IMG/VR virus record: IMGVR_UViG_3300031873_001030
DNA length: 64,000 nt
Source: a virus
Lineage: Duplodnaviria > Heunggongvirae > Uroviricota > Caudoviricetes
Reading direction: 5' to 3' (one strand)
The position numbers were made by a program, and so were the translations under genes. Each line of letters opens with the position of its first letter. Position 1 is the first letter of the stretch. The notes beneath the pieces were generated by a model. The model made no database searches, had not been told where the DNA came from, and saw only the letters and a program-made list of their open reading frames with translations. Below are positions 698 to 24,479 of the stretch, piece by piece.

Positions 698-715
698 CAT
701 TAACATATGTTAATG
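698..715. repeat. 18-bp perfect palindrome CATTAACATATGTTAATG (core TTAACATATGTTAA at 700-713)
   Basis: Read directly; 5 nt after the stop of 372..695 and 25 nt before ATG 739. Confidence 0.95.
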
Positions 716-738
716 TAAAAAATATGGGATTGGTGTGA

Positions 739-975
739 ATGTTTGACGAGAAATGGATAGCTCATTTGGAGAAGGAACACAACGAGAGATGTTCTGATAG
801 GGATTTGAGAAAGAAGAATAAGATATATGAAGTTTCTAAAAAGTATGCTAAGGATTGTATCAAGTGTCAATATATCTGTGAGAGAAGCAATAATTTTCAA
901 TCCACGTTGAAAGAGTTGAAGAGAATGGGTTGGAAGATATATTTTCCTAAAGTGAGACAAACCAGAGGAGATTGA
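739..975 (+). CDS. hypothetical protein
   Basis: ORF track; bracketed by two copies of the TTAACATATGTTAA palindrome. Confidence 0.5.
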   Translation: MFDEKWIAHLEKEHNERCSDRDLRKKNKIYEVSKKYAKDCIKCQYICERSNNFQSTLKELKRMGWKIYFPKVRQTRGD

Positions 976-987
976 AATCTTATGTCA

Positions 988-1001
988 TTAACATATGTTA
1001 A
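988..1001. repeat. TTAACATATGTTAA palindrome
   Basis: Read directly; 13 nt after stop 975 and 38 nt before ATG 1040. Confidence 0.95.
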
Positions 1002-1039
1002 ACATTTTTTTTCTAGCGAACCAAACAGGAAGGTGTAGA

Positions 1040-1195
1040 ATGAAAAAGAAAAAAACATATTGGATAATTGATTGGTGTAATGTGGAAAATTGTAAAGTAG
1101 CATATACATTAACAGAAGCAAGAAAATTTGCGAAAGAATTATATGAAGATAGTTCTCGCGTAATCATATTTCAATATATAGAAGAAAAGAGTTAG
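1040..1195 (+). CDS. hypothetical small protein (track start 995 lies inside the palindrome; ATG 1040 preferred)
   Basis: AGGTG at 1031-1035 precedes ATG 1040; in frame with track ORF 995..1195. Confidence 0.45.
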   Translation: MKKKKTYWIIDWCNVENCKVAYTLTEARKFAKELYEDSSRVIIFQYIEEKS

Positions 1196-1206
1196 AGGTG
1201 TAGAAA

Positions 1207-1578
1207 ATGGGAATGTATAGTTCTACTGATTGGTGTGAATTGAAAGTGAAAAGGGGAAAGGAAATAGAATTTTTTGATTGGCTTAAGAGGAATGAAGATT
1301 GGAAAGAAGCGATAGAAGTATTGAATGGCGAAGTAGAGATACAAGTCAGTTGGAAGATTATAAGTTATTGGTATGACAGCTTCCTTGACGAACTTGAACA
1401 GCTTGCTGAATATATTACAGGAAAATGGATATTGCTTTATGAGACAGGAGAAAGCAAAGCCATAATAACATTTACAGAAGATGACGAAGTGAAGATAGAA
1501 GTTGGGGAAATGGATTATCACAAAATTGATATAGATGATTTGAGAAAGGAAAATATGAAAATGGAAAGGAGTGATTAA
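1207..1578 (+). CDS. hypothetical acidic protein
   Basis: ORF track; stop codon TAA lies inside palindrome 1575-1588. Confidence 0.55.
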   Translation: MGMYSSTDWCELKVKRGKEIEFFDWLKRNEDWKEAIEVLNGEVEIQVSWKIISYWYDSFLDELEQLAEYITGKWILLYETGESKAIITFTEDDEVKIEVGEMDYHKIDIDDLRKENMKMERSD

Positions 1579-1626
1579 CATATGTTAAGAGAGTCGGCGG
1601 ACCCTGAGTTGCTTAACATATGTTAA
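1575..1626. repeat. pair of TTAACATATGTTAA palindromes (1575-1588, 1613-1626) enclosing a 24-bp GC-rich insert
   Basis: Read directly; insert gagagtcggcggaccctgagttgc is 16/24 G+C. Confidence 0.95.
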
Positions 1627-1886: not shown

Positions 1887-1905
1887 ACTAAAGAGGTAAT
1901 GAATT

Positions 1906-2094: not shown

Positions 2095-2313
2095 TATGCT
2101 GAAAGGAAGTCTTTATAGATATTTCTTTTGTAAGGAAAAGAAAGAAAAAGAATATAGGTGTCCAAAATGCGATTGTATTTTGGAGATAGAGATAAAATGT
2201 GGACCCAAGTGATATTGATGAATAAATTACACGTAGATATATTTGGTATGGATATGGATTTTGTTAAATGTAATTCTATAAAAAATTCTCAGACAAGCGC
2301 TTCTGAAGACAAC

Positions 2314-2504
2314 TTAACATATGTTAAGAATTCAGCAGTACCTGCAGCAAGCAACTCATTAACATATGTTAAGTATCTCCATCGAATCATCCTTGGCAAA
2401 CGCCAGACCCAGGAACACAAGTCTTTAACATATGTTAATGTAATCATTGGCCGCATTGCCTCAAACAAGAAAGAAAATCCCAGTCGCCCATTAACATATG
2501 TTAA
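2314..2504. repeat. four-copy TTAACATATGTTAA array (2314, 2359, 2425, 2491) with unique 31-, 52- and 52-bp spacers
   Basis: Read directly. It produces mirror-image artefact ORFs 2158..2559(+) and 2289..2564(-) with repeated LTYV(N/K). Confidence 0.95.
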
Positions 2505-2641
2505 TAAGTTGGTGCCAGCAATTGCTTGGCAACCAACAGCATACAAAGTGATATTATGAATCATATTCCTTTCATATGAAGCAGATATGTGGAAAATATT
2601 TGATACAATAATAGAAGGGAGAAAAAATGAGTTAAAAAGAG

Positions 2642-2854: not shown

Positions 2855-2867
2855 TTAGTGATTATTT

Positions 2868-3409: not shown

Positions 3410-3440
3410 AAAAATATGGTAAAAATAAGGTGATATATAA

Positions 3441-4010
3441 ATGAAGACAATAGAAGTAGAAATAAAAGGTCCTATTTTGCTGATGCATAATCCGAAGTCT
3501 ATGCTAGACCCACAGACTACTGGAACGAAATCATCAACTGCGAAATATGACTATAATGTCGAAGCAGAGAAGTCTGCTTACAAGACGAAAAAAAATGAAT
3601 TATATATTCCTGCCCAAGCTATGTTCAGTTCCACATTGAATGGAGCTTCTTTCAAGAAAGTAGGAAAATATACTGCCAAGAGCATTATAGCTGGCAATAT
3701 GAGAATAGAGCCAGAAGAAATCCTGATTCTAGATAGCAAAGGGAAAGTCATGACAAAATATGAGATAGACTTGAGGACTGTGGTTATTGCTCAAGGTAAG
3801 AAAAGAAACCGAATAGTCAGGGCAAGAGCTATGGTAAAGGATTGGAGTGCTAGATTCAGAATAGTCTATAACGACCAATTCATAGGCGACCCTGCTATAA
3901 TAGAAGATTGCTTGAAGGATGCAGGTTCAAGGATAGGTCTGTTGGAATACAGACCACAGACAAGTGGAAGCTACGGAACATTTGAGATAGTGAAATTCAA
4001 GGTGATATAA
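3441..4010 (+). CDS. hypothetical protein, translationally coupled to the ParB-like gene
   Basis: ORF track; AAGGTGA upstream; stop abuts ATG 4011. Confidence 0.65.
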   Translation: MKTIEVEIKGPILLMHNPKSMLDPQTTGTKSSTAKYDYNVEAEKSAYKTKKNELYIPAQAMFSSTLNGASFKKVGKYTAKSIIAGNMRIEPEEILILDSKGKVMTKYEIDLRTVVIAQGKKRNRIVRARAMVKDWSARFRIVYNDQFIGDPAIIEDCLKDAGSRIGLLEYRPQTSGSYGTFEIVKFKVI

Positions 4011-4895
4011 ATGGCACTATGGGATAGGGAAGAAAGAAAGCATACGGAAAATAAAGTATTGCCACTCAAGGATATAGTATTTGATGAGAACATATATCCA
4101 AGACAAAGTTCATGGTGGCAAACTTCGTATAAATATGCCGAAGAGATGAAAGCAGGCGCAAGGTTTCCTCCAATCACAGTAGGTTTTGTGAATGGAAGAT
4201 ACGTGCTTGTGGATGGGAAGCATAGGAATGACGCACTTCTGATGAATAAGGAGACACATACATCAGTAGTAGTTCTCTATGGTTACACTTTGGATGAACT
4301 CTATATTGAAGCTGTAAAACTCAATAGGGCTCACGGTGTAGGACTTACTTCTTTCGACAAGGTCAAGATAATCAAGAGACTTGAAGATATGAAATATTCA
4401 TTGGGAGACATAGCCACGATAGTCCAGATTCCTTTGGGAAGCATAGAGAAATTTGTAGCACAGAGGATTACGTTAAATCCATTAGGACAAGTCACAGTAT
4501 TGAAATCTCCTCTCAAGTTTATGGCAGGAGGAACTATAACGATGACTGACGAAGAGCAAGATACTCTAAGTGTGAGGAGTGAGATAAGTCTGGTAAATCA
4601 GATGACACAGATATTCTCAAATCCGAAGATGCTAAGGGTTGATATAACATTCGTTGATGCTATCGAGAAGCTTTACCAACTGATTCAAGATTTCCTCAAA
4701 GAACAGAAAATTTTGAATGGAGCTGGAAATACAATAGAAGAAGTTCCAAAAGAGAAAATATACAAGAAAAGAGGAAGACCTAAGAAAATCAAGACTGAAA
4801 GTGAGACTTCAGAACCAAAGAAAAAGGGAAGACCTAAAGGTTCTAAGAACAAGCTTAAAGAACTTGATGTCAGTAACGTCAAAGAACAAGCATAA
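4011..4895 (+). CDS. ParB/Srx-fold (ParB-like nuclease domain) protein with two C-terminal AT-hooks
   Basis: N-terminal LPLKDIVFDENIYPR ... RFPPITV ... YVLVDGKHR matches the ParB N-domain pattern (DGxHR). C-terminal KKRGRPKK and KKKGRPKGSK are AT-hook cores. Confidence 0.7.
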   Translation: MALWDREERKHTENKVLPLKDIVFDENIYPRQSSWWQTSYKYAEEMKAGARFPPITVGFVNGRYVLVDGKHRNDALLMNKETHTSVVVLYGYTLDELYIEAVKLNRAHGVGLTSFDKVKIIKRLEDMKYSLGDIATIVQIPLGSIEKFVAQRITLNPLGQVTVLKSPLKFMAGGTITMTDEEQDTLSVRSEISLVNQMTQIFSNPKMLRVDITFVDAIEKLYQLIQDFLKEQKILNGAGNTIEEVPKEKIYKKRGRPKKIKTESETSEPKKKGRPKGSKNKLKELDVSNVKEQA

Positions 4896-4944: not shown

Positions 4945-5015
4945 GACAACGAACCTCAGAGATAGAACTTACTGATTCTTAGAATCAGTTGGTTCTTACT
5001 GCGAGGTTCGTTGTC
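4945..5015 (+). repeat. 71-nt imperfect-hairpin element, copy 1 (candidate structured RNA or DNA cruciform site)
   Basis: Outer 13-bp stem GACAACGAACCTC/GAGGTTCGTTGTC, inner stems AGAAC/GTTCT and ACTGATTCT/AGAATCAGT; 50 nt after the ParB-like stop. Confidence 0.8.
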
Positions 5016-5431
5016 ATAGTTCCTTCCCTCTTCATACTTTCTTTAATATTAGGGAATTTATAAAAACTGTAGGTTTTTATTATGAGATAAGGTTCGGTTG
5101 GGTCAGTTGGGGTGGGTTCCGTTCCGATATGGTATGGTAAGATTATATTTATTGGACGTGGTAGGATAGGGTAGGATGCGATATGGTATTGTTACTTGTT
5201 CCGATATGGTTCGGTGATTTGGGGTTAGGTTAGGTCTGTTCCGATAGGGCAAGGTATGGTATTTTATTTATTCGATACGGTTCGGTTTGGTGGGTTTGGG
5301 TTAGGCAAGATAAGATAGGGTTAGACAAGGTATCTTACTTTTGTATCCGATTGGGTAAGGTCTGGTAGTATTCGGTCCGTTGTGGTTAGGCACGATATGG
5401 TGTGGTAAGGTTTGACATTTATAGTCAGTCA

Positions 5432-5491
5432 TTAACATATGATAAAGAGTTGGACCCAGTGCACGGGTGGCATTCCATTAACATATGTTAA
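5432..5491. repeat. palindrome pair (5432-5445 TTAACATATGATAA with 1 mismatch; 5478-5491 perfect) enclosing a 32-bp GC-rich insert
   Basis: Read directly; insert agagttggacccagtgcacgggtggcattcca is 19/32 G+C. Confidence 0.9.
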
Positions 5492-5525
5492 TGAGAAAAG
5501 ATAAGAAATAATGTAAAATGATAAT

Positions 5526-5798
5526 ATGAAGAAGATAAAGGAAGAATTTTGCTTTCGCAGGAATGATACTAGAACTTCATATGATATGCAGAAAGGCTAT
5601 CTGATATATGGCAAGATTGATGACATTTATAATATCATCACTTACAATCTATTTGAGATGTGGAATACTACAAAGTGTTTTAAAAGGTTTAGGAAATTGT
5701 TCGTCACTACTTCAAATCACGAATGGATACATTATCTTGTTCCAGATATAAAAGATGGAAGTCTGATGAAGAAGATTGAAAATTGGTTTAACTGGTAA
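5526..5798 (+). CDS. hypothetical protein embedded in the GGTNN tract
   Basis: ORF track; bracketed by a 42-bp perfect direct repeat that contains the palindrome. Confidence 0.45.
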   Translation: MKKIKEEFCFRRNDTRTSYDMQKGYLIYGKIDDIYNIITYNLFEMWNTTKCFKRFRKLFVTTSNHEWIHYLVPDIKDGSLMKKIENWFNW

Positions 5799-5822
5799 AA
5801 TGTATCGTTAACCAAAATTCCA

Positions 5823-5836
5823 TTAACATATGTTAA
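5823..5836. repeat. TTAACATATGTTAA palindrome (within the 42-bp direct repeat 5817-5858 = 5472-5513)
   Basis: Read directly. Confidence 0.95.
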
Positions 5837-5881
5837 TGAGAAAAGATAAGAAATAATGAAAATCAAAAAGAGGTAAAAAAA

Positions 5882-5989
5882 ATGAGATACTATTGCCGAG
5901 AACATAAGGAAAGTTTTGAGACTACTGTCTGCTTTCTTCAACATGTTCTTAAGGAACACCATAGCATATTTGACATCACAAGTGAATAG
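5882..5989 (+). CDS. 35-aa Cys/His-containing peptide
   Basis: ATG 5882 lies 45 nt after the palindrome; translation MRYYCREHKESFETTVCFLQHVLKEHHSIFDITSE; below the track cutoff. Confidence 0.3.
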   Translation: MRYYCREHKESFETTVCFLQHVLKEHHSIFDITSE

Positions 5990-6151
5990 ATATTTATGTG
6001 ATGAGGTGGGGTCAAGTCAGGTCGGTTCTGGTTGCGATACTGACCTTATCACACCAAACCTCACCTTACCAGGGTTCGATAAGTTGTGATTTGGTAGGAT
6101 AGGGTAAAGTTATTTATATTTGAAACACGTAATTATATGTCAAGGAAGTCT

Positions 6152-6223
6152 GACAACAAACCTCAGAGTTGGAACTTTCTGGTTCTAAAAAATCACTTAG
6201 TTCTTTCTGCGAGGTTTGTTGTC
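6152..6223 (+). repeat. imperfect-hairpin element, copy 2
   Basis: Outer stem GACAACAAACCTC/GAGGTTTGTTGTC. Confidence 0.8.
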
Positions 6224-6949
6224 TTTGTATCGACTTTATCATTCGGTCAGGTAAGGCGGGTTCAGGTGGGGTATAGTTTCGGTTCGGTATGGTAGTTTGA
6301 CATTTATACGATACGGTAAGGTGAGGTTTGGAAGATAGTCTTTATGATTCGGTAAGGTGGGGTCAGTTGCGATTGTGTGAGGTTTGATTTGGTTTGGTCT
6401 GATTTGGTAGTTTGAGGCAAGGTAAAGTTAATTCCTTTTATATGATAAGGTATGGTCTAATTCGGTCTGGTTTGGTTGGATGGGCTACGTTCCGATAAGG
6501 TTCGGTATGGTAATATGACACTTATACGATTAGGTTCGGTCAGGTAAGGTTGGGTCAAATGCGATTAGGTAAGATGAGGTTCGGTCAGATACGGCAAGAT
6601 ATGGTATAATATTTATTCGGTTAGGTGAGGTCAGTTTAGGTCTGGTCTGATGTAGTTTGGCATGGTAGTATAACACTTATCGGTTTGGTTCGGTATGATG
6701 CGATATGGTCAGATTCGGTTTGATATGGTAGTATGACACTTATTGGTCAGGTTTAGTAGAATATGGTAAGGTTCGGTTCGATACGGTGGGATATGGTCAG
6801 TTAGGATTTGGAAAAGGAGAGAATAGTTTCAAGAAAGAATCAGCCCTTGGGTGAGTCCCTTGAAATGAAAAATGCCGCACCAGAGATGGTGATATTAGGT
6901 AAACTAATATAAATCAAGGTTCGAACCGTCCGTTAGGCAACGGTTCTCT

Positions 6950-7020
6950 GACAACAAACCTCAGAGTTAGAACTTACTGGTTCTTGAAATCAGTTGGTTC
7001 TTTCTGCGAGGTTTGTTGTC
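6950..7020 (+). repeat. imperfect-hairpin element, copy 3
   Basis: Outer stem GACAACAAACCTC/GAGGTTTGTTGTC; preceded by hairpin GAACCGT..ACGGTTC (6923-6946). Confidence 0.8.
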
Positions 7021-7201
7021 TTCCTCCAAAAAATTACTTATTCGATAGGGTAAGGATAGGTATGCTATGTCAGGGTCAGGTTTGGTTAGGTTTGATATGG
7101 TATGGTAAGGTAATTTAATACTTTTGCTTTGGTGCAATATGGTAATATTCGGTAGGGTATAATTCGGTGGGTTCCGTTAAGGTATGGTAAGGATTATATT
7201 T

Positions 7202-7321
7202 ATGAAATACGTATATAGGAATAGAGATGATGAAAGGGAACTTAAATTTGAAGTTCCAGATAGTATGTCAATAGCTGAAGCATTTGAATTTGCAGAAAGG
7301 AAATGCGCCAGCATGGAGTGA
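7202..7321 (+). CDS. 39-aa hypothetical peptide inside the GGTNN tract
   Basis: Only non-repetitive, protein-like composition in this part of the tract (MKYVYRNRDDERELKFEVPDSMSIAEAFEFAERKCASME); weak. Confidence 0.3.
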   Translation: MKYVYRNRDDERELKFEVPDSMSIAEAFEFAERKCASME

Positions 7322-7672
7322 TTATAATTTTTGGTCTGGTAGGGTGCGATTAGGTACGATTGGGTTTGGTCAGATAGGATATGATATGGACTATTGTAAT
7401 TTTCGGTTAGGTGCGGTTAGGTCTGGTTTGGTGCGTTCGAGGTGTGGTCAGATAGGATATGGAACTTTCATTCGTACTTTTCGGTAGGGCATTATTCGGT
7501 CCGATATGGTCTGGTCAATTCCGCTCTGGTTCGGTTAGATAGTGTATGGTGATATATGTTAAGTCGTGGTTTGGTTCGGTCTGGTAGAATGAGGTTTATC
7601 TTTTTTGATAGGCTATCGTTCGGTCTGGTGAGGTATGGTTCGGTAGGGTTCGGCAAGGTTTAATCCTTTTAG

Positions 7673-7787
7673 GAAAGGGTCTTTGATTCATTCCCTTTCT
7701 ATAAAAGATTTATCCCACGTCTTCGGGATTTATCCCTTCTTTCAGAAGGGATTTATATATCACCGAATCTCGTTTTAAACGAGATTC
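7673..7787 (+). promoter_or_regulatory. cluster of four hairpins (7673-7699; 7707-7758 double ATCCC/GGGAT unit; 7765-7787 GAATCTCGTTT/AAACGAGATTC)
   Basis: Inverted repeats read directly. The GATTTATCCC-N6-8-GGGATTTAT unit recurs at 25703 and 43483. Confidence 0.6.
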
Positions 7788-7963
7788 ACAAAGAACTTGT
7801 GGTCGGGTCTGATACGGCAAGGTGTGATACGGTAAGATAAGATTGGGTTATGGTCTGGCAAGGAACTTTTTACTTATATGGTTTGGCACGGTCCATTCCG
7901 TTGCGTTTAGGTGTGGTAAGGCTTGGTATGGTTACGATTTATTTGGCGTAACATATGTAATAC

Positions 7964-8632
7964 GTGTATTTAAGGTTTCTTATGTATAGTTATGCTATGG
8001 CAAAAGATGAGAATAGGGAAATAAACGTCAGTGGAAAGACAATTGCCTTAATCCTTATGGTAATCATTACAATATTTTCAGTAGGCAGTCTGATAGTAGC
8101 CATAAATGATAAAGGTCAAGCTTCCTCAGATTCAACTAGCTGGCAGAACAAATATACAACTTGCAGTTCTGGATTAAGCTCTTGCAACTCTCAACTAAGC
8201 TCTTCTCAATCAAGCTCCTCTTCATGCGCTTCACAACTCAATACTTGCAATAGCAACCTTGATTATTATCAGAACACAGGAGGAACTTGCAGTTCAGATT
8301 TGAGCAATTGCAATGCCAATTATAATACCTGCAATGCCAATCTTAACAATTATAAGACACTTTATTCTAATTGCGGTGGCAGTCTGACTAACTATCAGAC
8401 ACTTTATTCTAACTGCCAGTCAAGCTATTCTACTTGTAATTCTAATTTCAATACTCTGACTTCCACTTACAATTCTCTGAAGTCAAATTCTGATGTCATG
8501 GCACAGAATTATGCCAGTATGAAATGCTGTCCAAGCTGGCCATCCACCAAATACAGCTATTACTATACAAGCAATGGAAATGTCTATTGCACTGATACAG
8601 CAACAGCAAGCACAAAACTTACAGGATGCTAA
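7964..8632 (+). CDS. membrane-anchored Ser/Asn/Cys-rich low-complexity protein
   Basis: ORF track; TM helix TIALILMVIITIFSVGSLIVAI followed by recurring C-N-S/A-N-(L/Y/F) motifs; start may be ATG 7982. Confidence 0.6.
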   Translation: MYLRFLMYSYAMAKDENREINVSGKTIALILMVIITIFSVGSLIVAINDKGQASSDSTSWQNKYTTCSSGLSSCNSQLSSSQSSSSSCASQLNTCNSNLDYYQNTGGTCSSDLSNCNANYNTCNANLNNYKTLYSNCGGSLTNYQTLYSNCQSSYSTCNSNFNTLTSTYNSLKSNSDVMAQNYASMKCCPSWPSTKYSYYYTSNGNVYCTDTATASTKLTGC

Positions 8633-8635
8633 ATC

Positions 8636-8761
8636 ATGAGAAAATATACATCCGACAAATGGTTGAAACCTGGTGAAAAATATATCAGCACTGCAGAGAA
8701 AGAACCTGTTCCTAAAAAGAAATATGGTCATGTAGAAATTCCAGATATAGAAGACGATTGA
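8636..8761 (+). CDS. 41-aa hypothetical peptide
   Basis: ATG 4 nt after the previous stop; below the track cutoff. Confidence 0.35.
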   Translation: MRKYTSDKWLKPGEKYISTAEKEPVPKKKYGHVEIPDIEDD

Positions 8762-8793
8762 TAACTAATATTATAATAGTTTTTAAGTGGTAA

Positions 8794-9276
8794 GTGATGA
8801 GTTACGACGAGACAAGTGATTTAGCATATCTGATATTATTCGTCGGTTGTATAATTGGATTGCTCATACTTATCGTTGGCTTAGTCGGATTTTTCAATCT
8901 TGTCCAAGGATTATATTTTTGGGATTGGTTCATACTATTTATCTTGACATTCCTAGCTTCAGAAGTTTTCTTCCTTCTTGTATTCAAGAAAAAACCGACA
9001 GGAAATGTATTCTGGAAGACATTTGGAAATAAGATTTTATCTTGGATGTCAGGTTCGTTGATAATCGCAGAATTTACTTCTTTCTATTATTACATTATTC
9101 TGAACATAATCAGAGATTGGCTTACCGTATTGGAAGTATTGACTACTATAGGAAAAATAATTGGAATAGGTGTGATGATTGCATCACTTATTGCTTTTTA
9201 CGTATGGTTCAACACTTTGAGATATAAAAATATCAAAGAACCTAAAGGGAAACTTAAAAAAGTATACAAGAGGTGA
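8794..9276 (+). CDS. polytopic membrane protein
   Basis: ORF track; four to five hydrophobic helices. Confidence 0.65.
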   Translation: MMSYDETSDLAYLILFVGCIIGLLILIVGLVGFFNLVQGLYFWDWFILFILTFLASEVFFLLVFKKKPTGNVFWKTFGNKILSWMSGSLIIAEFTSFYYYIILNIIRDWLTVLEVLTTIGKIIGIGVMIASLIAFYVWFNTLRYKNIKEPKGKLKKVYKR

Positions 9277-9280
9277 TTAG

Positions 9281-9610
9281 TTTCTGATAATTACTCAGAC
9301 ATTCACATTCGGACATAGTGAAAATCTTCTGGCAAGGATATTCTCCTCAAGCACAACACTTGCAAGATGCACATTTGTTTTCAATGAAAGACGCATAATA
9401 GAATATTATATCCGTGAAGAATGGGGTGGAAAAATTGCTGATACAAAAACTATTAATGGTTTCATAGACAGATTATGTAGAGACACCACGCATGAATTTG
9501 TTCATGCTCTTGGAAATTGCCATGTGGAATGGGTACCAAAGATGATGGATAGATGGATGAAAAAACGAATCATATATGCACATTCTGTGGGACAAAGGAA
9601 GGACCTATGA
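9281..9610 (+). CDS. HExxH (HEFVH) putative metallopeptidase-like ORF with no ATG/GTG/TTG near its 5' end
   Basis: Open frame from the stop at 9278-9280 to TGA 9608-9610. Its stop overlaps the next ATG (ATGA at 9607-9610). First canonical start is 87 codons in (GTG 9542); first ATG is 93 codons in (9560). Confidence 0.35.
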   Translation, partial: FLIITQTFTFGHSENLLARIFSSSTTLARCTFVFNERRIIEYYIREEWGGKIADTKTINGFIDRLCRDTTHEFVHALGNCHVEWVPKMMDRWMKKRIIYAHSVGQRKDL

Positions 9611-9681
9611 TACAGTTTGACTATGACGACTGGGAATGTGAAAAATGCCATAGGATGGGAAGACACATATCACGTAAATAA
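9607..9681 (+). CDS. 24-aa CxxC peptide
   Basis: ATGA overlap with the preceding ORF; MIQFDYDDWECEKCHRMGRHISRK. Confidence 0.3.
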   Translation: MIQFDYDDWECEKCHRMGRHISRK

Positions 9682-9702
9682 ATATGAATATCAAAATCAG
9701 AA

Positions 9703-10209
9703 TTGAAATATATGGAAGGATATAGTGTAAAGATTGGAAAGTGTTGTAATTGTAAAAAGGATATAACTAAAATGGGATTGAAAATAATAAAAGCAGAAGT
9801 TTTCACGAAAGAAGTATTTGACAAGATAATGAAAGGTGATTATATCGAAAATGCTAAGAAAGAGTATGAAAGCTTTTCCAATCAAAATCAGAGAAAAGGC
9901 CAATGGTTGTGGAATAAAATATGGGATAAAGTAGTTGATAAAGCAAAGAGACCAGAGAGTGAAAAAGATATTCTTGAAAATGAACAATTAGTTTCACATC
10001 ATCTATGGACTATGAAAGATTCTGAATTTGATGAGATGATGTCAAAGAGGGTAGATTGTTCTAAAATCTTGAAACTGATTGACGAATTTAGTAAAAAGTT
10101 TGATGTTAAGACTTTAGAATTATGTGGAGAAACTATAGAATATATTCCTATAACAATTGCAGACTGGAACAACTTTAAGGAAAAACTCAAGCAAGAGATT
10201 TTGAAATGA
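9703..10209 (+). CDS. hypothetical protein
   Basis: ORF track. Confidence 0.55.
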   Translation: MKYMEGYSVKIGKCCNCKKDITKMGLKIIKAEVFTKEVFDKIMKGDYIENAKKEYESFSNQNQRKGQWLWNKIWDKVVDKAKRPESEKDILENEQLVSHHLWTMKDSEFDEMMSKRVDCSKILKLIDEFSKKFDVKTLELCGETIEYIPITIADWNNFKEKLKQEILK

Positions 10210-10343
10210 TGATAACAACAGCAATATTCATATTACTGAAACTTTTTGTAGAGAATAATAGTGTATCTTGGTGGTGGATGTTACTTTTCATACTCTTTGA
10301 TTTGATGATGGTTCTTACTATCAGAGTAGATTTTGGAAGATGA
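10206..10343 (+). CDS. 45-aa small membrane protein
   Basis: ATGA overlap with the 9703..10209 stop; two hydrophobic helices (MMITTAIFILLKLF...WWWMLLFILFDLMMVLTI). Confidence 0.4.
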   Translation: MMITTAIFILLKLFVENNSVSWWWMLLFILFDLMMVLTIRVDFGR

Positions 10344-10347
10344 AATT

Positions 10348-10524
10348 ATGAGTTATAAATGTGAAAATTGTAAAGGAACAGTTCCAAACTGTATGCCACA
10401 AATAAAGATAATTGTAGAAAAGAGAGATAAGACATATCCGAATGGAAGCATTGGTTGGGAAACAGTCAAAGAGAAAGTATTGTGCAGTTCATGCAATAAG
10501 GATAAAGAGGTCAAAAAATCATAG
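10348..10524 (+). CDS. small zinc-ribbon protein (CENC...CSSC)
   Basis: ORF track (track start TTG 10333; ATG 10348 preferred). Confidence 0.5.
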   Translation: MSYKCENCKGTVPNCMPQIKIIVEKRDKTYPNGSIGWETVKEKVLCSSCNKDKEVKKS

Positions 10525-10649
10525 ATTTCAATCAGATAATTGACAAGTATCTGGATAGGGAAAGGAGAGAAAGAAAGATAGGGGAATATTATGTTAGCGA
10601 GATTCCATATTGTTTAAGATTAACTTGGTTTAGATTCAAACAGCCTAAA

Positions 10650-11186
10650 GTGACATCCAAAAAAACACTCAGGCTATTCGAGAGGGGCAATGTGATTCAT
10701 CAATTCATATCAAAAGTCCTATTGAGTTCGGAAGCAGTAAGGGAAGTAAAAAGTGAACAGTCACTAAGGATACCAAGGATATCTGACAACCCTAAGGAAA
10801 ATTTTCTAATCACAGGCAGATTTGATAACTTTATTGAATTAGTAGAAGGGGAAAATGTGCTGATTGAAGTGAAGACGACAAGAAATCTGGATTATCAGAA
10901 ATCAGCTTCATTGCATCATATCATGCAACTGACACCATATCTTTTATACAAGCAAGGTCTGAAAGGTGCCATATTGTATATAGACATGAACTTCCAGACA
11001 AAAGTATTTGAAGTGATTTATGACCCTAAATTGATGCTGGAAATAATGAAAAGGGCAGAAAATTTGCATATGTATTTAGTGGAAGACAAAATGCCGCTAC
11101 CAGAAGCCAAAGACATACCAGAAAAAAATTGGGAATGCAAATACATATGCAATTATAAAGAGGAATGTGATAAATGTGTTACCTAA
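10650..11186 (+). CDS. Cas4-like / RecB-family PD-(D/E)xK nuclease with Fe-S cysteines; the real N-terminus lies upstream of the track start
   Basis: GNVIH, GRFDNF...LIEVKT (D..ExK), QLTPY (QxxxY) and C-terminal CKYICNYKEEC. The conserved N-terminal SEIPYCLR with the fourth Cys is in frame upstream (10587-10610), where no canonical start exists. Confidence 0.7.
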   Translation: MTSKKTLRLFERGNVIHQFISKVLLSSEAVREVKSEQSLRIPRISDNPKENFLITGRFDNFIELVEGENVLIEVKTTRNLDYQKSASLHHIMQLTPYLLYKQGLKGAILYIDMNFQTKVFEVIYDPKLMLEIMKRAENLHMYLVEDKMPLPEAKDIPEKNWECKYICNYKEECDKCVT

Positions 11187-12039: not shown

Positions 12040-12374
12040 GAAAAAAATTCAATTATGAAAACTATTACAAGAAATATTATGAAAGTCATAAGGATAAGCA
12101 CTTGTATTATGTCAATGAATGGAAGAAGAAGCATAAAGATAGTGTAAGAATTTATTCCAAACGTTATTCCAAAAGTTGGAGATTGAGAAACAAAGAAAGA
12201 TTGAAGAAAACTTCAAAAAGATATTATGACAGGCATATCAGAAGTTCTTGGTTCGATAGGATATTTGGTTTCAAATGCAAAGTATGCGGCAAGAGATATA
12301 AAGATAAAAAGGCTTTGGGTGGGCATACCACATATTGTAAAAGAAAAAGGATTGAACTTATTAACATATGTTAA
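12018..12374 (+). CDS. basic Tyr/Lys-rich protein with C-terminal CxxC...HxxxC zinc finger
   Basis: ORF track; stop codon inside palindrome 12361-12374. Confidence 0.5.
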   Translation: MDKGKKMRKKFNYENYYKKYYESHKDKHLYYVNEWKKKHKDSVRIYSKRYSKSWRLRNKERLKKTSKRYYDRHIRSSWFDRIFGFKCKVCGKRYKDKKALGGHTTYCKRKRIELINIC

Positions 12375-12411
12375 AAAGATTGCATGCAGATAACTTCTTA
12401 ACATATGTTAA
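12361..12411. repeat. palindrome pair (12361-12374, 12398-12411) enclosing a 23-bp insert
   Basis: Read directly; insert aaagattgcatgcagataacttc. Confidence 0.95.
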
Positions 12412-12446
12412 TTGCTCGGAAATTCCGAAAAGCAGAAGGTAATGAC

Positions 12447-15984: not shown

Positions 15985-16499
15985 CTAAGCTTTCGTATCT
16001 TGACTTCGATGAATGTCTCGGCATCGAAAAACTTTCCAAACTTCAGAGGAATCCATATTATCTTCCCTCTTTTTCCCATCTGACCCACCTTACATCTAAA
16101 ACTTATTTCATTTATCATAAAATATATTAGTTTCATTAGAATATAAAGTTTTAAATTCAATTATAATACAGCAAATAGAAGTGACAATTATACCAAACCC
16201 AAGTTGAGTCACTGAAATGAGGATTTATAGTTCAATCCAATCTTTACAATTTCCACAGAAGTCTCCACCACTCTTACAGCTTCCATCATAAAAATTTTTA
16301 CAACTACTGCAGCATCTCAAGTTTTAACCTATTTTTAGCTTCTTCTTCCAACTTACATATTTCATTTATCGTATACATCACAATAACCTCCACATCTTCA
16401 ATCTGACAGCGAGTTTATACATATTATGCCAAAACCAACTGCCTTCATTCTTTCTCGCAAACATATATATTCCAACATATGTTATCAATGACATAATTG

Positions 16500-16775
16500 T
16501 AAACCACAGATTACCAGACCATACCCGAACCTATAAGACCACATCACACCTGAGCGAAAAGTGTTAACCATACCACATCAGACTTTATCATGCCTTACCA
16601 GTCCTTAACATATCGTAACTTACCACAACGTAGCATAAATGACAATCCATATCTTACCACACACCAACATATCTTACCAAAACCCACCCTAACCCATCTA
16701 ACCCAATCATAAATATAATCCCTATCTTACCAAATCCCATCACAACGGACCCTACCAAATCAGACCCCGTTAAAT
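16500..16775 (-). repeat. GGTNN pentanucleotide tract on the minus strand (NNACC on +)
   Basis: 5-nt reading ttacc agacc atacc ... accaa aaccc accct aaccc; lies downstream (sense) of minus-strand gene 16869..17171. Confidence 0.8.
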
Positions 16776-17742: not shown

Positions 17743-18933
17743 ATGACGTTGAAGAATCTTGTAACGCCATTGGAACTTAAGACTCTCTGGGATTCTGAAT
17801 ATTACAAATCAATATTGACAGCTACAGCTAGCAGCTGCCAATTTGGAAGGATAAGAGAACACCAACGTAATAATACATTCAAAGAAATCAGAGCCAATCT
17901 GAATGCTCTGATAGTTGGAGAATATGGAATTGGGAAATCCACAATGTTGGACATTAAGAATGTCCCAATAGTCAGGGCTAATACAGTTTCAGTTGCTGGA
18001 CTAGCTGGAACTACGACAAGAAGTGGGGAACACGTTATTGGAGCTGCATATAAAGCTAATAATAAATTACTAATTATAGATGACGTTGGTAGTGGTGAAA
18101 ATTCTTATATAGATAATTCTGTAAAACGATGCATGAATCTGCTATTGGAACCTCCGCATACTTTTTCACGAATGTTAGGATTTAAGATGAACATTCCTGT
18201 GAAAGAGAAGAAGGGTGGAGCTTGGGTGAAAGGAAGTGAGAATCAGTTTACATTGCGTTCTAAGTTCAGTTGCATCGTAGCTACAACATCAGTTGTAATT
18301 CGAAATACTGATGACAAAGCTTGGATGTCAAGATTCGTACCAGTAAAACTACATGGTAGTGTGGATTACATGTTTGAATTTTTATCTGGTTCTAATCCAT
18401 TTACAATTACTGGTTTGAATCGGAAAGTCAAGTTATTTGAATTTCCAGATTATCTGGAATTCTTGGAATTCTATGAAGAACATTTTCGTGGAAGTCTGTG
18501 GGAGAAAAGCATAATAGAAAAGGAAGATGAAGTCGGTTCTATAGCGAGAAATACTGGTGACTTGGTAAGATTGGCTGCTTTCAATTGCGCTGTCGATGAT
18601 AGAATAAATATAGAATTTGAAGATGCCAAGAAAGTTTTTGATAGGTTCTACAATCAGATATGGTTCAATATCCAAGTTGGACCACTGACTCATGAACAAT
18701 ATAGAGTTCTATTACTTCTCAATAAGAAGTTGACTGAAGATGAGATAGCAGAAACTATACAAAGGTCACAGCCTTACGTATCTAAGATGATAGAGAAATT
18801 TGAAAGTAAGGGAATACTTGTAGACAGAAAAGTTGCGAAAGAAGTTGAAAACTTTAAACAAACTTCATGGGAAAAACTCGAACCACAGCAGACTTTATCA
18901 GAATCTGTAAAGTTAGATGGTAGTCATGAGTGA
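17743..18933 (+). CDS. MCM-like AAA+ ATPase with C-terminal winged helix-turn-helix
   Basis: Walker A VGEYGIGKST, Walker B LLIIDDVG, sensor-1-like CIVATTS, Arg-finger-like MSRF (MCM SRFD), and C-terminal LTEDEIAETIQRSQPYVSKMIEKFESKGIL. Confidence 0.65.
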   Translation: MTLKNLVTPLELKTLWDSEYYKSILTATASSCQFGRIREHQRNNTFKEIRANLNALIVGEYGIGKSTMLDIKNVPIVRANTVSVAGLAGTTTRSGEHVIGAAYKANNKLLIIDDVGSGENSYIDNSVKRCMNLLLEPPHTFSRMLGFKMNIPVKEKKGGAWVKGSENQFTLRSKFSCIVATTSVVIRNTDDKAWMSRFVPVKLHGSVDYMFEFLSGSNPFTITGLNRKVKLFEFPDYLEFLEFYEEHFRGSLWEKSIIEKEDEVGSIARNTGDLVRLAAFNCAVDDRINIEFEDAKKVFDRFYNQIWFNIQVGPLTHEQYRVLLLLNKKLTEDEIAETIQRSQPYVSKMIEKFESKGILVDRKVAKEVENFKQTSWEKLEPQQTLSESVKLDGSHE

Positions 18934-21249: not shown

Positions 21250-21672
21250 AGACTATGTTTTGGATGTCGGTTGTGGAAAAGGAAATCTTGAAGTGATATT
21301 GGAAAGAAGGGGATTTGAAAATCTTTTTGCATTGGACAGTTCCAAAATGGCATTGGCAGAACTTAAATTGAGAACAAGAAAAAGCAAGACATCCAAAATC
21401 CTATGCAAGTCATAAAGGAATGCATGAGAGTTGGCAGACAAGCTATCATAGCCGTTCCTAATGGATTTTGGGTCGAACTGATACCTAAGAATTGGACTAT
21501 GCCAATTCCAAATTACTATGCACCTACAAAGAAATTGTTGAAATCTGCTGTGCATTGGTTGGGAGGAGAGATAATAGAATGGAATTATTACTATTCAGAT
21601 TTCAGATTCATAAGAAAATTCTTTCCAAGATGGTTCAGTACTAGCTTCATAGTAAGAGTAAAAAAACGATAA
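21239..21672 (+). pseudogene. decayed methyltransferase: N-fragment 21239..21415 (motif I VLDVGCGKGN) and C-fragment 21403..21672 (RVGRQAIIAVPN) in different frames, middle missing
   Basis: Translated by hand. Premature TAA at 21413-21415. The C-part is open in another frame from 21367. The motif II region is absent. Confidence 0.5.
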
Positions 21673-21728
21673 GTTTATATACTTTCACAAACAATATATA
21701 ATATGCTTCAGAGACATGAAGTTAACTA

Positions 21729-22961
21729 TTGGAGATGAAAGTGATGAACATAGGTGAAGTTGAAATTGGAAAACCTTGGCAATATAAGGAAAATTCTATT
21801 GGAATTGTTGTTCCACTTTTAAGGAAGAATCAAGTCAAAAGAAATTATAAGACAGTTGAGGAAGTTAAGGAGATGATGAATATCAAGGATACTGGAAATA
21901 TAGACAGTGTTGAAATTTCCTCAAAAGTCAATGAACCAGTTTTTATCAGGAGCGGGACGATGTTTGAAGGGGTTGGAACTCAGAGCAGGACGCCAACAAC
22001 TAGCATTGTCATAATTCCAAATCAACAGCCTATGAAAGTTCCTGTAAAATGCATACATGCTTCTCATCACATATCTTCTGGAAGCAACTTTAAAGTCGCA
22101 GGTAGTATTCCCCACTATATTGGTTATGCAGCTTTTGGACCAAGGGCTAGTCAATCTCGTGTGTGGTCTTCTGTAAGCATGCAAGCAAGTTCTGTAAGCC
22201 ATCATGCTATGCATCTTTCTGACAATCTTATCGATAACGTAAGAAAAATAGAAACTTTTAAGAAAGATATTGGCGAAGCAGTTAAAAACTATCCGATATT
22301 GAAAAATCAAGTTGGTATAGTTGTTCTTGATTTTAACGGGGTTGTTGGTCTTGAGATGTTTGATAATTCTGAATCTTGGGCAGCAGTATGTAAAGACATA
22401 ATCAATAAGTATTCTGACACAATAACACAGCTTGTTGACAGTCCTTTATTTTCATTGAATGAAGAAAGCATAAAACCAAAGATATTGGAATTCTTGAAGA
22501 AGCTGACAGAAGCAAAAGAAGAGATTATCTTTCAAGCAGATGTGATGAAAACAATCTTATTGGAAAATGGAGATATCATTGGAGAATGTACGAGTATTGA
22601 TGGCAGGATGATACATCTCATGGGAATGAAAAAGAAGGATGAGGAAAGGACATATGGTTCAGTTGCTCCAAATAATTTACCATTTACACCACAAAATTGG
22701 ACAACCAGAGGTTCTAACTATTCTGTGCTATCTGCACTTGGAGATGGAAGTAGGAGATTTTCAGAAATAGAGAAAACAACTAAATTATCCCCAGCTACAG
22801 TAAGCAAAAATTTAAGCAAGTTCCATTCTCTTGGATTTATTGACAAGTCAGCAGAAATAATAAACAACAAGGCCCGTGAAGTTTATAGCCTTACAAGCAA
22901 CGGTAAAAATGCATTTTTTACTATGCATGATGTCAGGAAGAAATTGATGAAGCTTGGATAA
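21729..22961 (+). CDS. uncharacterised N-domain fused to a C-terminal wHTH (ArsR/TrmB-like)
   Basis: C-terminal YSVLSALGDGSRRFSEIEKTTKLSPATVSKNLSKFHSLGFI. Confidence 0.6.
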   Translation: MEMKVMNIGEVEIGKPWQYKENSIGIVVPLLRKNQVKRNYKTVEEVKEMMNIKDTGNIDSVEISSKVNEPVFIRSGTMFEGVGTQSRTPTTSIVIIPNQQPMKVPVKCIHASHHISSGSNFKVAGSIPHYIGYAAFGPRASQSRVWSSVSMQASSVSHHAMHLSDNLIDNVRKIETFKKDIGEAVKNYPILKNQVGIVVLDFNGVVGLEMFDNSESWAAVCKDIINKYSDTITQLVDSPLFSLNEESIKPKILEFLKKLTEAKEEIIFQADVMKTILLENGDIIGECTSIDGRMIHLMGMKKKDEERTYGSVAPNNLPFTPQNWTTRGSNYSVLSALGDGSRRFSEIEKTTKLSPATVSKNLSKFHSLGFIDKSAEIINNKAREVYSLTSNGKNAFFTMHDVRKKLMKLG

Positions 22962-23109
22962 GCCTTAAATACTTTAACAGCCAATATTTTTTAGATATCA
23001 AATGAGAATCTACGATAATGTCACGATATAAGTTACACATTATGTGTAACCTCTCTATCTTTGCCTAGCAAGTGAAGACAGGGACATAAAAGAAAAAGAG
23101 GTAGATTCA

Positions 23110-23427
23110 ATGGTATTAATGTATAGGCAGGGAGACTTGCTTTTCAGAAAAGTAGAGAAGATTCCTTCTAATGCAGATGTCGTTAAAAATGGCGTTATTC
23201 TAAAAGGTGAAGCGACTGGACATGCTCACAAGCTTGTAGGCGGTACAGTATTTTCACAGTCAACTGGATTCATGGGAAATGGTCCAAGACAAATGTTCCT
23301 TCAAGTTGAAAAGAGCGGAAGAGTTGTTCATGAAGAACATAAAACAATTGAACTTGAAATTGGGTTCTACATCGTAATCCGTCAACGTGAATATAACCCA
23401 TACAGAATCTCATTAGTCGGGGATTAG
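23110..23427 (+). CDS. hypothetical protein (QGDLLF...GEATGHAH motif)
   Basis: ORF track. The motif resembles a small family seen in phage genomes (memory only). Confidence 0.55.
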   Translation: MVLMYRQGDLLFRKVEKIPSNADVVKNGVILKGEATGHAHKLVGGTVFSQSTGFMGNGPRQMFLQVEKSGRVVHEEHKTIELEIGFYIVIRQREYNPYRISLVGD

Positions 23428-24054
23428 ATGATGGACGAATTCAAGAACACAATGAAAGGATTCTTTCACAGTTTTGATTATCTTCCTGAAGTGTTCAAGA
23501 CTCTTCATATCATAAGGCTAGTTCCAGGAAAGTTCGAGGTCAAGATGAAGCAGCCAATGATAATCCTTGGAAACCTGAGATTCCTGAATGAGACAAAACA
23601 TAGATGGCAGGAATACAATTTCGAAACTTTCTTCCTCAAAAAGAGAATTCCAGATTGCCAATGCAAAGAAGTCATGGATGCTGCAAAGGAATACATCCTA
23701 TTCAAAAGACTGCATGAGAACCAGAAAATCAGTGCAAGAGAAATAATGAATTGCAAAAATCTCGAATTGAGGAGAGCATTACTTGAAAGGTTTGGTTATG
23801 AGAAAATGTTGAATGAGCTTGGTGGACATATGATAGATGCAGAAGGAAATTACATTCTTTTCAAAATGGATTTCAGGGAAGTAAATGAATCTGTAAAATT
23901 AAATGAGGATGTAAAACTTTTGAAGATGAAGGATTCCTCAACAGAAAGATGGTATGTATTAAGGGTTCCTCCAAATGTAAAAAATTGCACTGAAGCTGTG
24001 TCATGGTCTTTCAATACGCCAGTTGAAGAATACAAATTAGAAGTGGAAACATAG
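23428..24054 (+). CDS. hypothetical protein
   Basis: ORF track; abuts the previous stop. Confidence 0.55.
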   Translation: MMDEFKNTMKGFFHSFDYLPEVFKTLHIIRLVPGKFEVKMKQPMIILGNLRFLNETKHRWQEYNFETFFLKKRIPDCQCKEVMDAAKEYILFKRLHENQKISAREIMNCKNLELRRALLERFGYEKMLNELGGHMIDAEGNYILFKMDFREVNESVKLNEDVKLLKMKDSSTERWYVLRVPPNVKNCTEAVSWSFNTPVEEYKLEVET

Positions 24055-24110
24055 TGCGTGTGACAGGATTTGAACCTGTAAGGCACTAAGCAACGGATAT
24101 CCAAGTCCTA
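24055..24110 (-). other. tRNA 3'-part-like fragment (T-arm ACAGG-TTCAAAT-CCTGT plus acceptor strand CACACGC plus A); no matching 5' acceptor strand found
   Basis: Read on the minus strand. The complementary GCGTGTG occurs once (31075-31081), inside ORF 31056..31520 and about 7 kb away, so it cannot be the 5' acceptor strand. Confidence 0.35.
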
Positions 24111-24415
24111 ATCGTTTAAGTTTACTCTTGGTTTGAGCCTTTGAGTTTGGGCCTCTAAGTCCGCCTATCTTTTAAATAATTATATATGCTGTAATATATA
24201 TTATGAAAAAGCGAAAACTAATTTAACTGTTGAAATTAAAGTTATTGGATATGTCTTACTGTAAAGCATGCAGAATATGCCTTCCTTTCTTAATTCATCA
24301 TGCAATTTTATAATTAAGAAGGTTATAATGTTGACTTTGATACTCTTCTTTCCAGCACAAGCTCATATCTTTTTAATACCTTCCTTATTGCAGCAATGAT
24401 ACTTATCTTTTTCTC

Positions 24416-24479
24416 TTAACATATGTTAATCAGTGATGCAGCATAATGCAAAATTCCTTCAGTCTTTAACATATGTTAA
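24416..24479. repeat. palindrome pair (24416-24429, 24466-24479) enclosing a 36-bp insert
   Basis: Read directly; lies between the tRNA fragment and tRNA-Tyr. Confidence 0.95.

Follow-up and report, generated by a model that had tools for sequence, protein, structure and literature searches.

On IncP plasmids, the KorB (OB) and KorA (OA) operators, like the Noc-binding sites, are perfect palindromes of 12-14 bp that lie at many promoter-proximal and distal positions. The attC sites of integrons are imperfect palindromes of 57-141 bp which act as folded single strands and need the IntI integrase. In phages, both the regulation of orphan genes and their turnover are attributed to short conserved motifs at gene junctions. 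The promoter-early stem-loops (PeSLs) of T4-type phages are directional composites of a sigma-70 early promoter and a terminator stem-loop (PMC2839356, PMC4122927), and the stoperators of cluster A mycobacteriophages (L5, Bxb1) are asymmetric 13-bp sites bound by a monomer in an orientation-dependent manner (PMC9283540, PMC6550527).

Here, we analysed a 64-kb stretch of DNA (the window) from an uncultivated virus-like genome, probably that of an archaeal head-tailed virus, in which TTAACATATGTTAA, a perfect 14-bp palindrome, occurs 14 times (starts at 700, 988, 1575, 1613, 2314, 2359, 2425, 2491, 5478, 5823, 12361, 12398, 24416 and 24466). These coordinates match exactly those given in a preliminary description of this DNA. 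The count compares with a chance expectation of 0, since a single copy appeared in none of 100 dinucleotide-preserving shuffles. Sites with 0, 1, 2 and 3 mismatches number 14, 1, 1 and 11, with about 11 sites at up to 3 mismatches expected by chance; the copies are perfect or absent, in an all-or-none manner. Among the near-copies listed earlier, that at 5432 (one mismatch) stands, the one placed at 16603 really starts at 16605 (two mismatches), and the one placed at 16473 starts at 16472 and has three mismatches but keeps the 10-bp core AACATATGTT, of which 0.14 copies are expected. The fourth, at 7948, has three mismatches and is indistinguishable from chance. The motif was also said to be absent from the right part, and indeed no copy with 0-2 mismatches lies beyond 24479 within the window; the nine independent loci all fall within its first 38% (P ~2e-4). 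With the 11 further perfect copies of L171, a contig from the same sample that extends the sequence 9.2 kb leftward, the total rises to 25 in 33.5 kb of the joined sequence, against 0 in the right 39.5 kb.

The copies are intergenic or overlap stop or start codons (Table 1), and the curated genes of the region contain no internal copy except for the stop overlaps, even though 68% of the region is coding. When the distances to start and stop codons were measured, the positional claims held. Single copies, described as lying 0-25 nt past a stop codon, follow it by 4, 12 and 24 nt, and the gaps to the next start, described as 25-45 nt, are 25, 38, 34, 45 and 35 nt; the two stop codons reported to lie inside the palindrome do so. 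The statement that each small gene is bracketed was too broad, as it is true of 739-975, 1040-1578 and 5526-5798 but not of the others. The four-copy array at 2314-2504 lies inside a mechanical ORF (2158-2559); its spacers are C-rich and not coding-like, yet ORFs are open on both strands. Within pairs and arrays, the spacers range from 22 to 68 nt, while most loci are single copies. An Rfam search returned tRNAs only.

Table 1. Copies of the 14-bp palindrome and associated promoter-like boxes in the window.
Feature	Coordinates	Strand	Context
Perfect palindrome	700..713		4 nt past stop of DUF7417 gene (372-695), 25 nt before ATG 739
Perfect palindrome	988..1001		12 nt past stop of 739-975, 38 nt before ATG 1040
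Perfect pair, 1575-1588 and 1613-1626	1575..1626		Spacer 24 nt; TAA of 1207-1578 inside first copy
Array of four perfect palindromes (2314, 2359, 2425, 2491)	2314..2504		Spacing 45, 66, 66 nt
Pair, 1-mismatch 5432-5445 and perfect 5478-5491	5432..5491		3' edge of GGTNN array
Promoter-like box AAGATAAgAAATAATG	5498..5525	+	6 nt downstream of palindrome 5478, directly before ATG 5526
Perfect palindrome	5823..5836		24 nt past stop of 5526-5798, 45 nt before ATG 5882
Perfect pair, 12361-12374 and 12398-12411	12361..12411		Stop of C2H2 zinc-finger gene 12018-12374 inside first copy
Degenerate copy CCAACATATGTTAT, 10-bp core intact	16472..16485		Downstream (3') edge, in minus-strand reading, of minus-strand GGTNN array
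2-mismatch copy	16605..16618		Inside minus-strand GGTNN array
Promoter-like box AAGATAAg	24380..24409	-	6 nt from palindrome 24416; geometry as at 5478 and 5823
Perfect pair, 24416-24429 and 24466-24479	24416..24479		Plus-strand genes meet 3' end of minus-strand tRNA cluster

A sequence logo of 27 copies showed that only a weak, symmetric TCA/TGA extension is conserved outside the 14-mer and that the flanks carry no directional conservation; in a comparison of 38 copies, the flanks were unrelated right up to the 14-mer. Half-sites on their own show no enrichment (~10 seen vs ~21 expected). A promoter-like box, AAGATAAtAAT..GTGCT, follows at least eight copies at a distance of 0-38 nt (nine sites, of which three are beyond the window), and at four sites, one of them on the minus strand, the gap between palindrome and box is an identical 6 nt. 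The box at 5498 belongs to a 26-nt module that recurs after palindrome 5823 (box at 5843) and after the copy at 7659 of the related contig L024, while many copies have no adjoining box. Scans for sigma-70 promoters and intrinsic terminators revealed nothing specific to the motif, with a -35/-10 pairing at only one copy. A T-run follows just 1 of the 27. Because the promoter-like boxes nearby are separate elements, and because the 14-mer has neither directional flanks nor sigma-70 geometry and is followed by a T-run at a single copy, the earlier suggestion that it is itself a bidirectional promoter/terminator is unlikely.

Four related metagenome contigs from other samples (L014, L018, L024 and L172) carry 4-5 perfect copies each. 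More distant relatives contained no perfect copies, and the contigs reached through homologues of the 189-aa protein and of the DUF7417 protein had neither the palindrome nor an equivalent motif. Several junction positions are kept between relatives although the neighbouring spacers and flanks have diverged, namely one past the DUF7417 gene, a paired one following gene D and one at the DNA ligase ATG. The position of palindrome 700 is kept in L172 (931), with homology ending right after it; the 1575/1613 pair follows the orthologous gene there too (1957/2001), around an unrelated spacer of 30 nt, and the 5432/5478 pair is syntenic with 7577/7659 in L024. None of 50,697 phage records matched the left 25 kb at near-identity, and the 14-mer sequence was not found in the literature. 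In IMG/VR, no paired copies were found; among the at least 120 loci listed there, each has one copy except for a single unrelated contig with two.

Several insertions and cassette replacements between these relatives start or end at a copy. A gene found intact in L014 and L172 is interrupted by 73 nt of inserted sequence starting exactly with the palindrome, an extra ORF directly adjoins the copy at 8597 of L171, and in L172 a zinc-finger cassette replaces gene B immediately past a shared palindrome. For the C2H2 zinc-finger gene, homology between the window and L172 ends at the palindrome in both genomes, and the cassette occurs in two genomic contexts with a copy at its end both times. At each indel, only one side abuts a copy. 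Indels end at gene ends anyway. A clean palindrome-to-palindrome deletion was considered for L024, which lacks window ~5526-12990, and was rejected, as only the left end of the gap is near a copy.

Taken together, we tentatively favour, at a little below an even chance, a dual role in which the 14-mer binds a dimeric protein controlling transcription in this arm, with its many small orphan genes, and is also the crossover point for cassette shuffling. A site for a dimeric protein, as proposed in the preliminary description, is the best fit to the perfect dyad symmetry with its weak TCA/TGA extension, to the lack of half-site enrichment and to the position just upstream of promoter-like boxes. 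Acting as a regulator, such a dimer, of viral or host origin, would occupy the 14-mer between genes, and the site would then serve as an operator or roadblock, with single copies inside transcription units and pairs or arrays at unit ends. Since the identical 14-mer marks so many junctions, it may also be a shared crossover point at which related genomes gain, lose or replace small cassettes. Protein binding, the sign of regulation and recombination at the 14-mer, rather than merely near gene ends, are what we infer from these patterns. The identical 14-mer also occurs in unrelated CPR-bacterial contigs, where it is paired and overlaps the promoter region of small HTH_17 genes, suggesting that this sequence can serve as a transcription-factor operator.

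The proteins considered as candidates did not yield the binder. An HTH_17 regulator was dismissed, as no homologue occurs in the 73 kb of window and L171 or in the relatives (all matches with E above 0.3), nor does a small HTH_17 gene lie beside a 14-mer pair in any of them. The RHH proteins of L014, L172 and the window, the last of which (43539) had been put forward as a candidate, lack conservation from one of these genomes to the next, and the motif-bearing relatives have no RHH protein in common. Pfam scans gave no repressor-like match. Another early candidate was the ParB-like protein encoded at 4011-4895, in which a ParB N-domain is combined with an HTH and AT-hooks. Its relatives in the ParB family, among them KorB, Noc and Spo0J, recognise palindromes of 13-16 bp at numerous positions, and this protein could similarly treat the 14-mer as a parS-like site, silencing or organising the left arm. 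Its remote homologues carry PF02195, the alignment shows an HTH-like segment, and in the window, L018 and L024 the gene is followed by copies no more than 0.6 kb away. However, homologues at 50-59% identity keep the same HTH region at palindrome-free loci: L025, L027 and L030 have the gene without the palindrome, and in L025 (58%) and L027 (50%), where the HTH region is near-identical, there is no repeated palindrome of any kind. Moreover, in the window and the four relatives whose downstream DNA could be read, the neighbour of the gene is the GGTNN array. ParB-type binding is therefore disfavoured and appears very doubtful. A role at the RNA level, with paired copies forming a 14-bp transcript stem as a processing, stabilising or termination hairpin at unit ends, seems highly improbable. 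The pairs do have folding energies of -15 to -24 kcal/mol (z-scores between -3.8 and -5.9) and tend toward the ends of apparent transcription units, for instance in front of the 1655 promoter-like box and at 24416, where the junction is convergent. Nevertheless, nearly half of the loci are single copies, a lone copy folds weakly even with three flanking bases per side (-6.3 kcal/mol), the spacers are variable and T-runs all but missing, and genuine strong hairpins are present elsewhere in the genome.

Most operator sets show graded degeneracy, and the all-or-none spectrum of the 14-mer thus fits copying or recombination, or enzyme-like recognition, better than an operator. The 14-mer could accordingly be a dedicated site-specific recombination site, on whose symmetric core a recombinase dimer would act with crossover at the central TA, so that cassettes between copies would be excised, inserted or inverted in an integron- or shufflon-like manner. 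Flanks that are unrelated up to the 14-mer, the 73-nt insertion, the zinc-finger cassette in its two contexts, copies at or near the edges of minus-strand blocks and the restriction of the motif to a narrow clade all agree with such a site, and the earlier proposal of recombination sites delimiting cassettes has gained real support from indels and a cassette replacement that border on copies. It is nonetheless unlikely: no integrase or recombinase domain was detected in the ~80 proteins scanned (window and L171, with ~19 kb of contig outside the scan), the indels abut copies on one side only, tight pairs and a four-copy array would be unexpected for crossover sites, and inversion is not seen for the MTase gene 12447-12995, which lies between 12398 and 16472. 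A bolder version, which we regard as quite unlikely, would make the 14-mer the core site of a so far undescribed system by which an archaeal virus exchanges cassettes, with a recombinase of an unrecognised kind or supplied by the host. Whichever strand is read, the 14-mer contains an ATG and, in two of the three frames, a stop codon, so any cassette joined there would be automatically punctuated. A miniature insertion, selfish or neutral, that spreads among junctions through insertion or gene conversion and has no regulatory role is also very unlikely. Besides the mismatch spectrum, this would account for the copy inserted into a coding sequence and for the absence of the motif from slightly more distant relatives, whose genes are tightly packed; a 75-nt hairpin, another small palindromic element, is likewise present or absent between relatives. 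Against it, orthologous junction positions are kept while the adjoining genes share 66-79% nucleotide identity and the spacers have diverged, the 6-nt distance to a promoter-like box is fixed at several copies, a single genome arm contains every copy, and no transposase was found.

With regard to described systems, the paired copies are not a CRISPR mini-array, which needs repeats of at least 21 bp and uniform spacers. A CRISPR-like or MITE reading was likewise dropped, as spacers between paired copies share only 8-9-nt matches in roughly the number expected by chance. The attC sites share with the 14-mer a palindromic nature, a position at cassette 3' ends and the recurrence of the same cassette beside the site in different contexts, while the 14-mer is no long imperfect palindrome with R''/L''/L'/R' boxes, and the proteins scanned include no IntI-type integrase. 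As in genomes with KorB, KorA or Noc sites, many palindromes of 12-14 bp coexist with a gene for a ParB-family protein with an HTH; in contrast to KorB and Noc, the gene and the motif do not co-occur in the relatives, where the constant neighbour of the gene is the GGTNN array.

The closest likenesses are to the two phage systems. Stoperators, spread over the genome, and the 14-mer each number more than 20 near-identical sites of repressor type, placed in promoters and in short gaps between genes and often touching stop or start codons, and all 25 perfect copies found here lie at junctions. Unlike the asymmetric stoperator, which is oriented with transcription, the 14-mer is a perfect palindrome with symmetric flanks, is confined to one arm and is often paired, and no homologous repressor was seen in the Pfam scans. 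The repressor of stoperator systems, of the L5 gp71 type, joins an HTH to a stoperator domain. PeSLs and the 14-mer are both short conserved intergenic motifs, repeated in orphan-rich hyperplastic regions, which bracket small genes and coincide with insertion, deletion or replacement boundaries between close relatives. The 14-mer differs as a bare perfect palindrome without the promoter geometry or strong hairpin of PeSLs, and in its probably archaeal host. Recombination between PeSL copies yields mini-circles. In the preferred reading, the 14-mer resembles PeSLs and stoperators in function and belongs to neither family. As these documented cases come from bacterial phages, the 14-mer would extend the idea of junction motifs to a previously unseen, probably archaeal, virus lineage, in which a perfect 14-bp palindrome offers an unusually clean and searchable marker, a handle on the regulator and a means of measuring cassette flux in metagenomic reads.

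The palindrome TTAACATATGTTAA occurs 14 times without mismatch in the window, exactly at the coordinates listed in the preliminary description, whereas none of 100 dinucleotide-preserving shuffles of the window contained a copy; the count thus departs clearly from a composition-matched expectation. No copy is found beyond position 24,480, in agreement with the restriction to the left ~25 kb described before. The overlapping contig L171, which stems from the same sample, extends the window 9,174 nt leftward and contributes 11 further perfect copies and one 1-mismatch copy; the combined total is 25 perfect copies, all within 33.5 kb, against 0 in the right 39.5 kb. In the window, a single mismatch is seen at just one site (5432) and two mismatches at another (16605), and the 11 sites with 3 mismatches compare with ~11 sites with ≤3 mismatches predicted by chance. 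Sites are thus either exact palindromes or no more frequent than background. Site 16472 is probably a decayed copy, since it retains a 10-bp core that chance would produce only 0.14 times. These three sites had also been proposed as near-copies; a fourth at 7948 was indistinguishable from chance. Half-sites outside full copies are rarer than expected (~10 vs ~21), which argues that the whole dyad is the functional unit.

Based on a hand-curated gene list for 1-24,500, of which 68% is coding, no palindrome lies within a gene except by overlapping a stop codon, and the short gaps previously reported from copies to neighbouring stops and starts agree with this list. On either strand, the palindrome carries ATG as well as TAA in two of three reading frames. 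It contains the ends of four genes (window 1207-1578 and 12018-12374, L171 4702-4929 and one in the related contig L014), and the DNA ligase gene of both L014 and L171 takes its ATG from a copy. Outside the 14-mer, a logo of 27 copies showed only a weak symmetric TCA...TGA to be conserved, and the flanks of 38 copies are unrelated up to the motif edge, with just two duplicated modules as exceptions. The spacings in the window's four-copy array (45, 66 and 66 nt) are all multiples of 3, so that ORFs remain open across it on both strands. Their base composition differs from that of the genome's genes, and a pair in the related contig L018 is out of frame; these ORFs are probably non-coding.

Related contigs from other samples carry the same 14-mer exclusively in perfect form (L014, 5 copies; L018, 4; L024, 4; L172, 5 in 2.3 kb). 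In more distant relatives, which have ParB-like proteins of 50-59% identity or DUF7417 in common, neither this nor any other repeated palindrome was found; the genes of these relatives are tightly packed. Orthologous junctions keep the palindrome position while the sequence next to them diverges. Window 700, which follows the DUF7417 gene (372-695), corresponds to L172 931; the 1575/1613 pair that follows gene D (1207-1578) corresponds to L172 1957/2001, with unrelated spacers; and relatives also share a copy that precedes gene X. The palindrome is a genuine and strongly non-random motif, specific to one narrow clade, within which the 14-mer and several junction positions are conserved. The conserved coding sequence of gene X itself holds a near-palindrome, TTAACATCTGTTAA in L172 (331-344) and TTGACATCTGTTAA in L014 (5715-5728), which encodes LTSVK and differs from the palindrome by 1-2 mismatches.

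The window is a portion of a 92-kb metagenome contig, has a GC content of 35% and showed no near relative among deposited phages. Nearly all genes lie on the plus strand with GGAGGTG-type ribosome-binding sites, and for the majority of proteins no family was detected. Its short XPF nuclease is of archaeal type (best match Aeropyrum pernix XPF, full length, E = 1e-32), and the palindrome pair 24416/24466 forms the left border of the minus-strand tRNA/XPF block. A C2H2 zinc finger, several methyl- and glycosyltransferases, a 3,752-aa DUF285 protein and proteins with N-X-S/T-rich repeats are also encoded. Contigs with DUF7417 homologues also carry head-tail virus genes (Phage_Mu_F, baseplate protein). 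Taken together, the gene content tentatively suggests a head-tailed virus of an archaeon. The 48-bp tandem repeats encode N-X-S/T sequon runs (NITNIS...), and between both tandem-repeat regions lie a 1,340-aa protein and the DUF285 protein; this suggests heavily N-glycosylated surface proteins.

Coordinates of the features in the window, its left extension (negative values, on L171) and related contigs
Feature	Position	Strand	Remark
Promoter-like box 1, TTAAATACtttaaca	1655, 3304, 22965, 26490	+	intergenic recurrence
Promoter-like box 1, TTAAATACtttaaca	17372	-	intergenic recurrence
Promoter-like box 2, ctAAGATAAtAATacGTGCTtATaGT / ctAAGATAAtAAT..GTGCT	5498, 5843, 28459	+	recurrence
Promoter-like box 2	24409	-	recurrence
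Promoter-like box 2	L171 1392-2600		recurrence
Palindrome overlapping box 2	-6652
Palindrome upstream of box 2	-6589, -4214, -2319, 5478, 5823
Palindrome upstream of box 2	24416	-
Palindrome upstream of box 2	L024 7659; L014 3758
ORF open through four-copy array	2158-2559	+	each copy reads LTYV(K/N)
ORF open through four-copy array	2289-2564	-	each copy reads LTYV(K/N)
GGTNN arrays	5061-5428, 6192-6816, 7005-7208, 7316-7692, 7831-7930, 35410-35500	+	degenerate repeats, 5-nt period
GGTNN array	16473-16775	-	degenerate repeats, 5-nt period
70-75-nt hairpin, four copies	4945-5015, 6152-6223, 6950-7020, 34624-34698
Five-tRNA-gene cluster and short archaeal-type XPF nuclease	24527-25538 and 25714-26358	-	minus block in otherwise plus-strand genome
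Tandem repeats, 48, 102 and 162 bp	42573-43328, 42939-43088; 62784-63700	- for 42573-43328	repeat units

The palindrome has neither sigma-70 geometry nor a terminator tail. Two separate promoter-like boxes, with the short forms TTAAATAC (box 1) and AAGATAA (box 2), recur in intergenic DNA. Box 2 is placed 25-40 nt ahead of ATG codons, a geometry that would suit TATA/BRE promoters of archaea whose transcripts have short leaders or none. At nine sites the palindrome lies 0-38 nt upstream of box 2, with an identical 6-nt gap at four of them, compared with ~1.7 such associations expected by chance per 25 copies, as roughly estimated from box density. Judged from sequence, the palindrome is placed as an upstream operator would be. 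Paired copies appear to tend toward apparent transcription-unit ends (before box 1655, and at the convergent junctions 24416 and L024 7577/7659) and singles toward internal junctions.

Gene content changes between relatives at several copies. Gene X, unbroken in L014 and L172, is divided into two ORFs in L171 by a 73-nt insertion starting with the palindrome. Compared with L014, an additional ~240-nt ORF lies immediately right of the palindrome at L171 8597, and the gene at 2642-2854, after the window's four-copy array, is absent from L018. The interval from the DUF7417 gene to gene D holds gene B in the window but a zinc-finger gene in L172; the latter shares 79% nucleotide identity with its window counterpart 11 kb away. 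Homology between both contigs is gone ~10 nt past the shared palindrome after the DUF7417 gene, and that of the zinc-finger gene stops at a palindrome in both. Such turnover could reflect a dedicated site-specific recombination site, which we consider unlikely; each indel or replacement adjoins a copy at one end only, and the proteins scanned, from the window and L171, gave no recombinase domain. Selfish insertion of the palindrome, as the interrupted gene X might suggest, appears improbable beside the retained junction positions. That the paired copies act as an RNA hairpin is least credible of all. In a separate comparison (L024 7659-8176 vs window 5478-13347), L024 is without ~7.5 kb, about 5526-12990, a stretch that holds most GGTNN arrays, ~8 genes and a glycosyltransferase.

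The ParB-like protein (4011-4895), previously suggested as a binder, contains a ParB N-domain, an HTH-like segment and C-terminal AT-hooks. It is a poor candidate, since homologues at palindrome-less loci retain the same HTH region and a GGTNN array of strict 5-nt periodicity adjoins the gene in the window and in 4/4 relatives with downstream DNA read. A KorB-like ParB site is about as improbable as selfish insertion. The GGTNN arrays are long and non-coding, their G-rich strand agrees with the direction of downstream genes, and one immediately follows the ParB-like gene in L018, L024, L025 and L027, two of these being without the palindrome; the arrays may be centromere-like or upstream regulatory elements. 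A 189-aa protein of no known function (3441-4010) neighbours the ParB-like gene in the same four contigs and in L030, where the order is reversed, and its distant homologues come from phages of Pseudomonas and Gordonia, where they lie in early or immunity regions. A 70-75-nt hairpin without Rfam match (-33 to -44 kcal/mol, z-scores -6 to -8 for the three copies folded) shows compensatory changes among copies in its outer stem (CAACGAACC, CAACAAACC, CAATGAACC, each with matching partner strand). Two copies directly follow stop codons, and the one downstream of the ParB-like gene is missing in L024.

The identical 14-mer also occurs in MAG and metagenome contigs of CPR bacteria (Patescibacteria) that are unrelated to the window. 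In these it immediately precedes a divergent small HTH_17 (excisionase-type) gene, as a pair in L003, L006, L007, L010 and L013/L023 and as a triplet in L015. There it overlaps likely HTH_17 promoters, with sequences resembling a -10 element, which suggests that the 14-mer can act as a transcription-factor operator. The arrangement resembles an autoregulatory operator, conserved among these contigs, for a regulator family that is undescribed and has no relation to the window. An HTH_17 regulator was rejected as the binder here, as the window, L171 and the relatives contain no homologue, and the RHH proteins encoded beside palindromes in L014 and L172 show no conservation from genome to genome. 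Candidate binders besides the ParB-like protein are the products of two wHTH genes (17743-18933 and 21744-22961), two zinc-finger genes (12018-12374 and 5882-5988) and an RHH gene (43539-43721), together with small proteins encoded beside copies.

Overall, we tentatively favour, at somewhat below even odds, a control site at gene junctions that is symmetric, binds a protein and also serves as a crossover point for cassette shuffling. Although it lacks the defining sequence features of either system, such a palindrome would work like the T4-type PeSLs (PMC2839356, PMC4122927) and the mycobacteriophage stoperators (PMC9283540).
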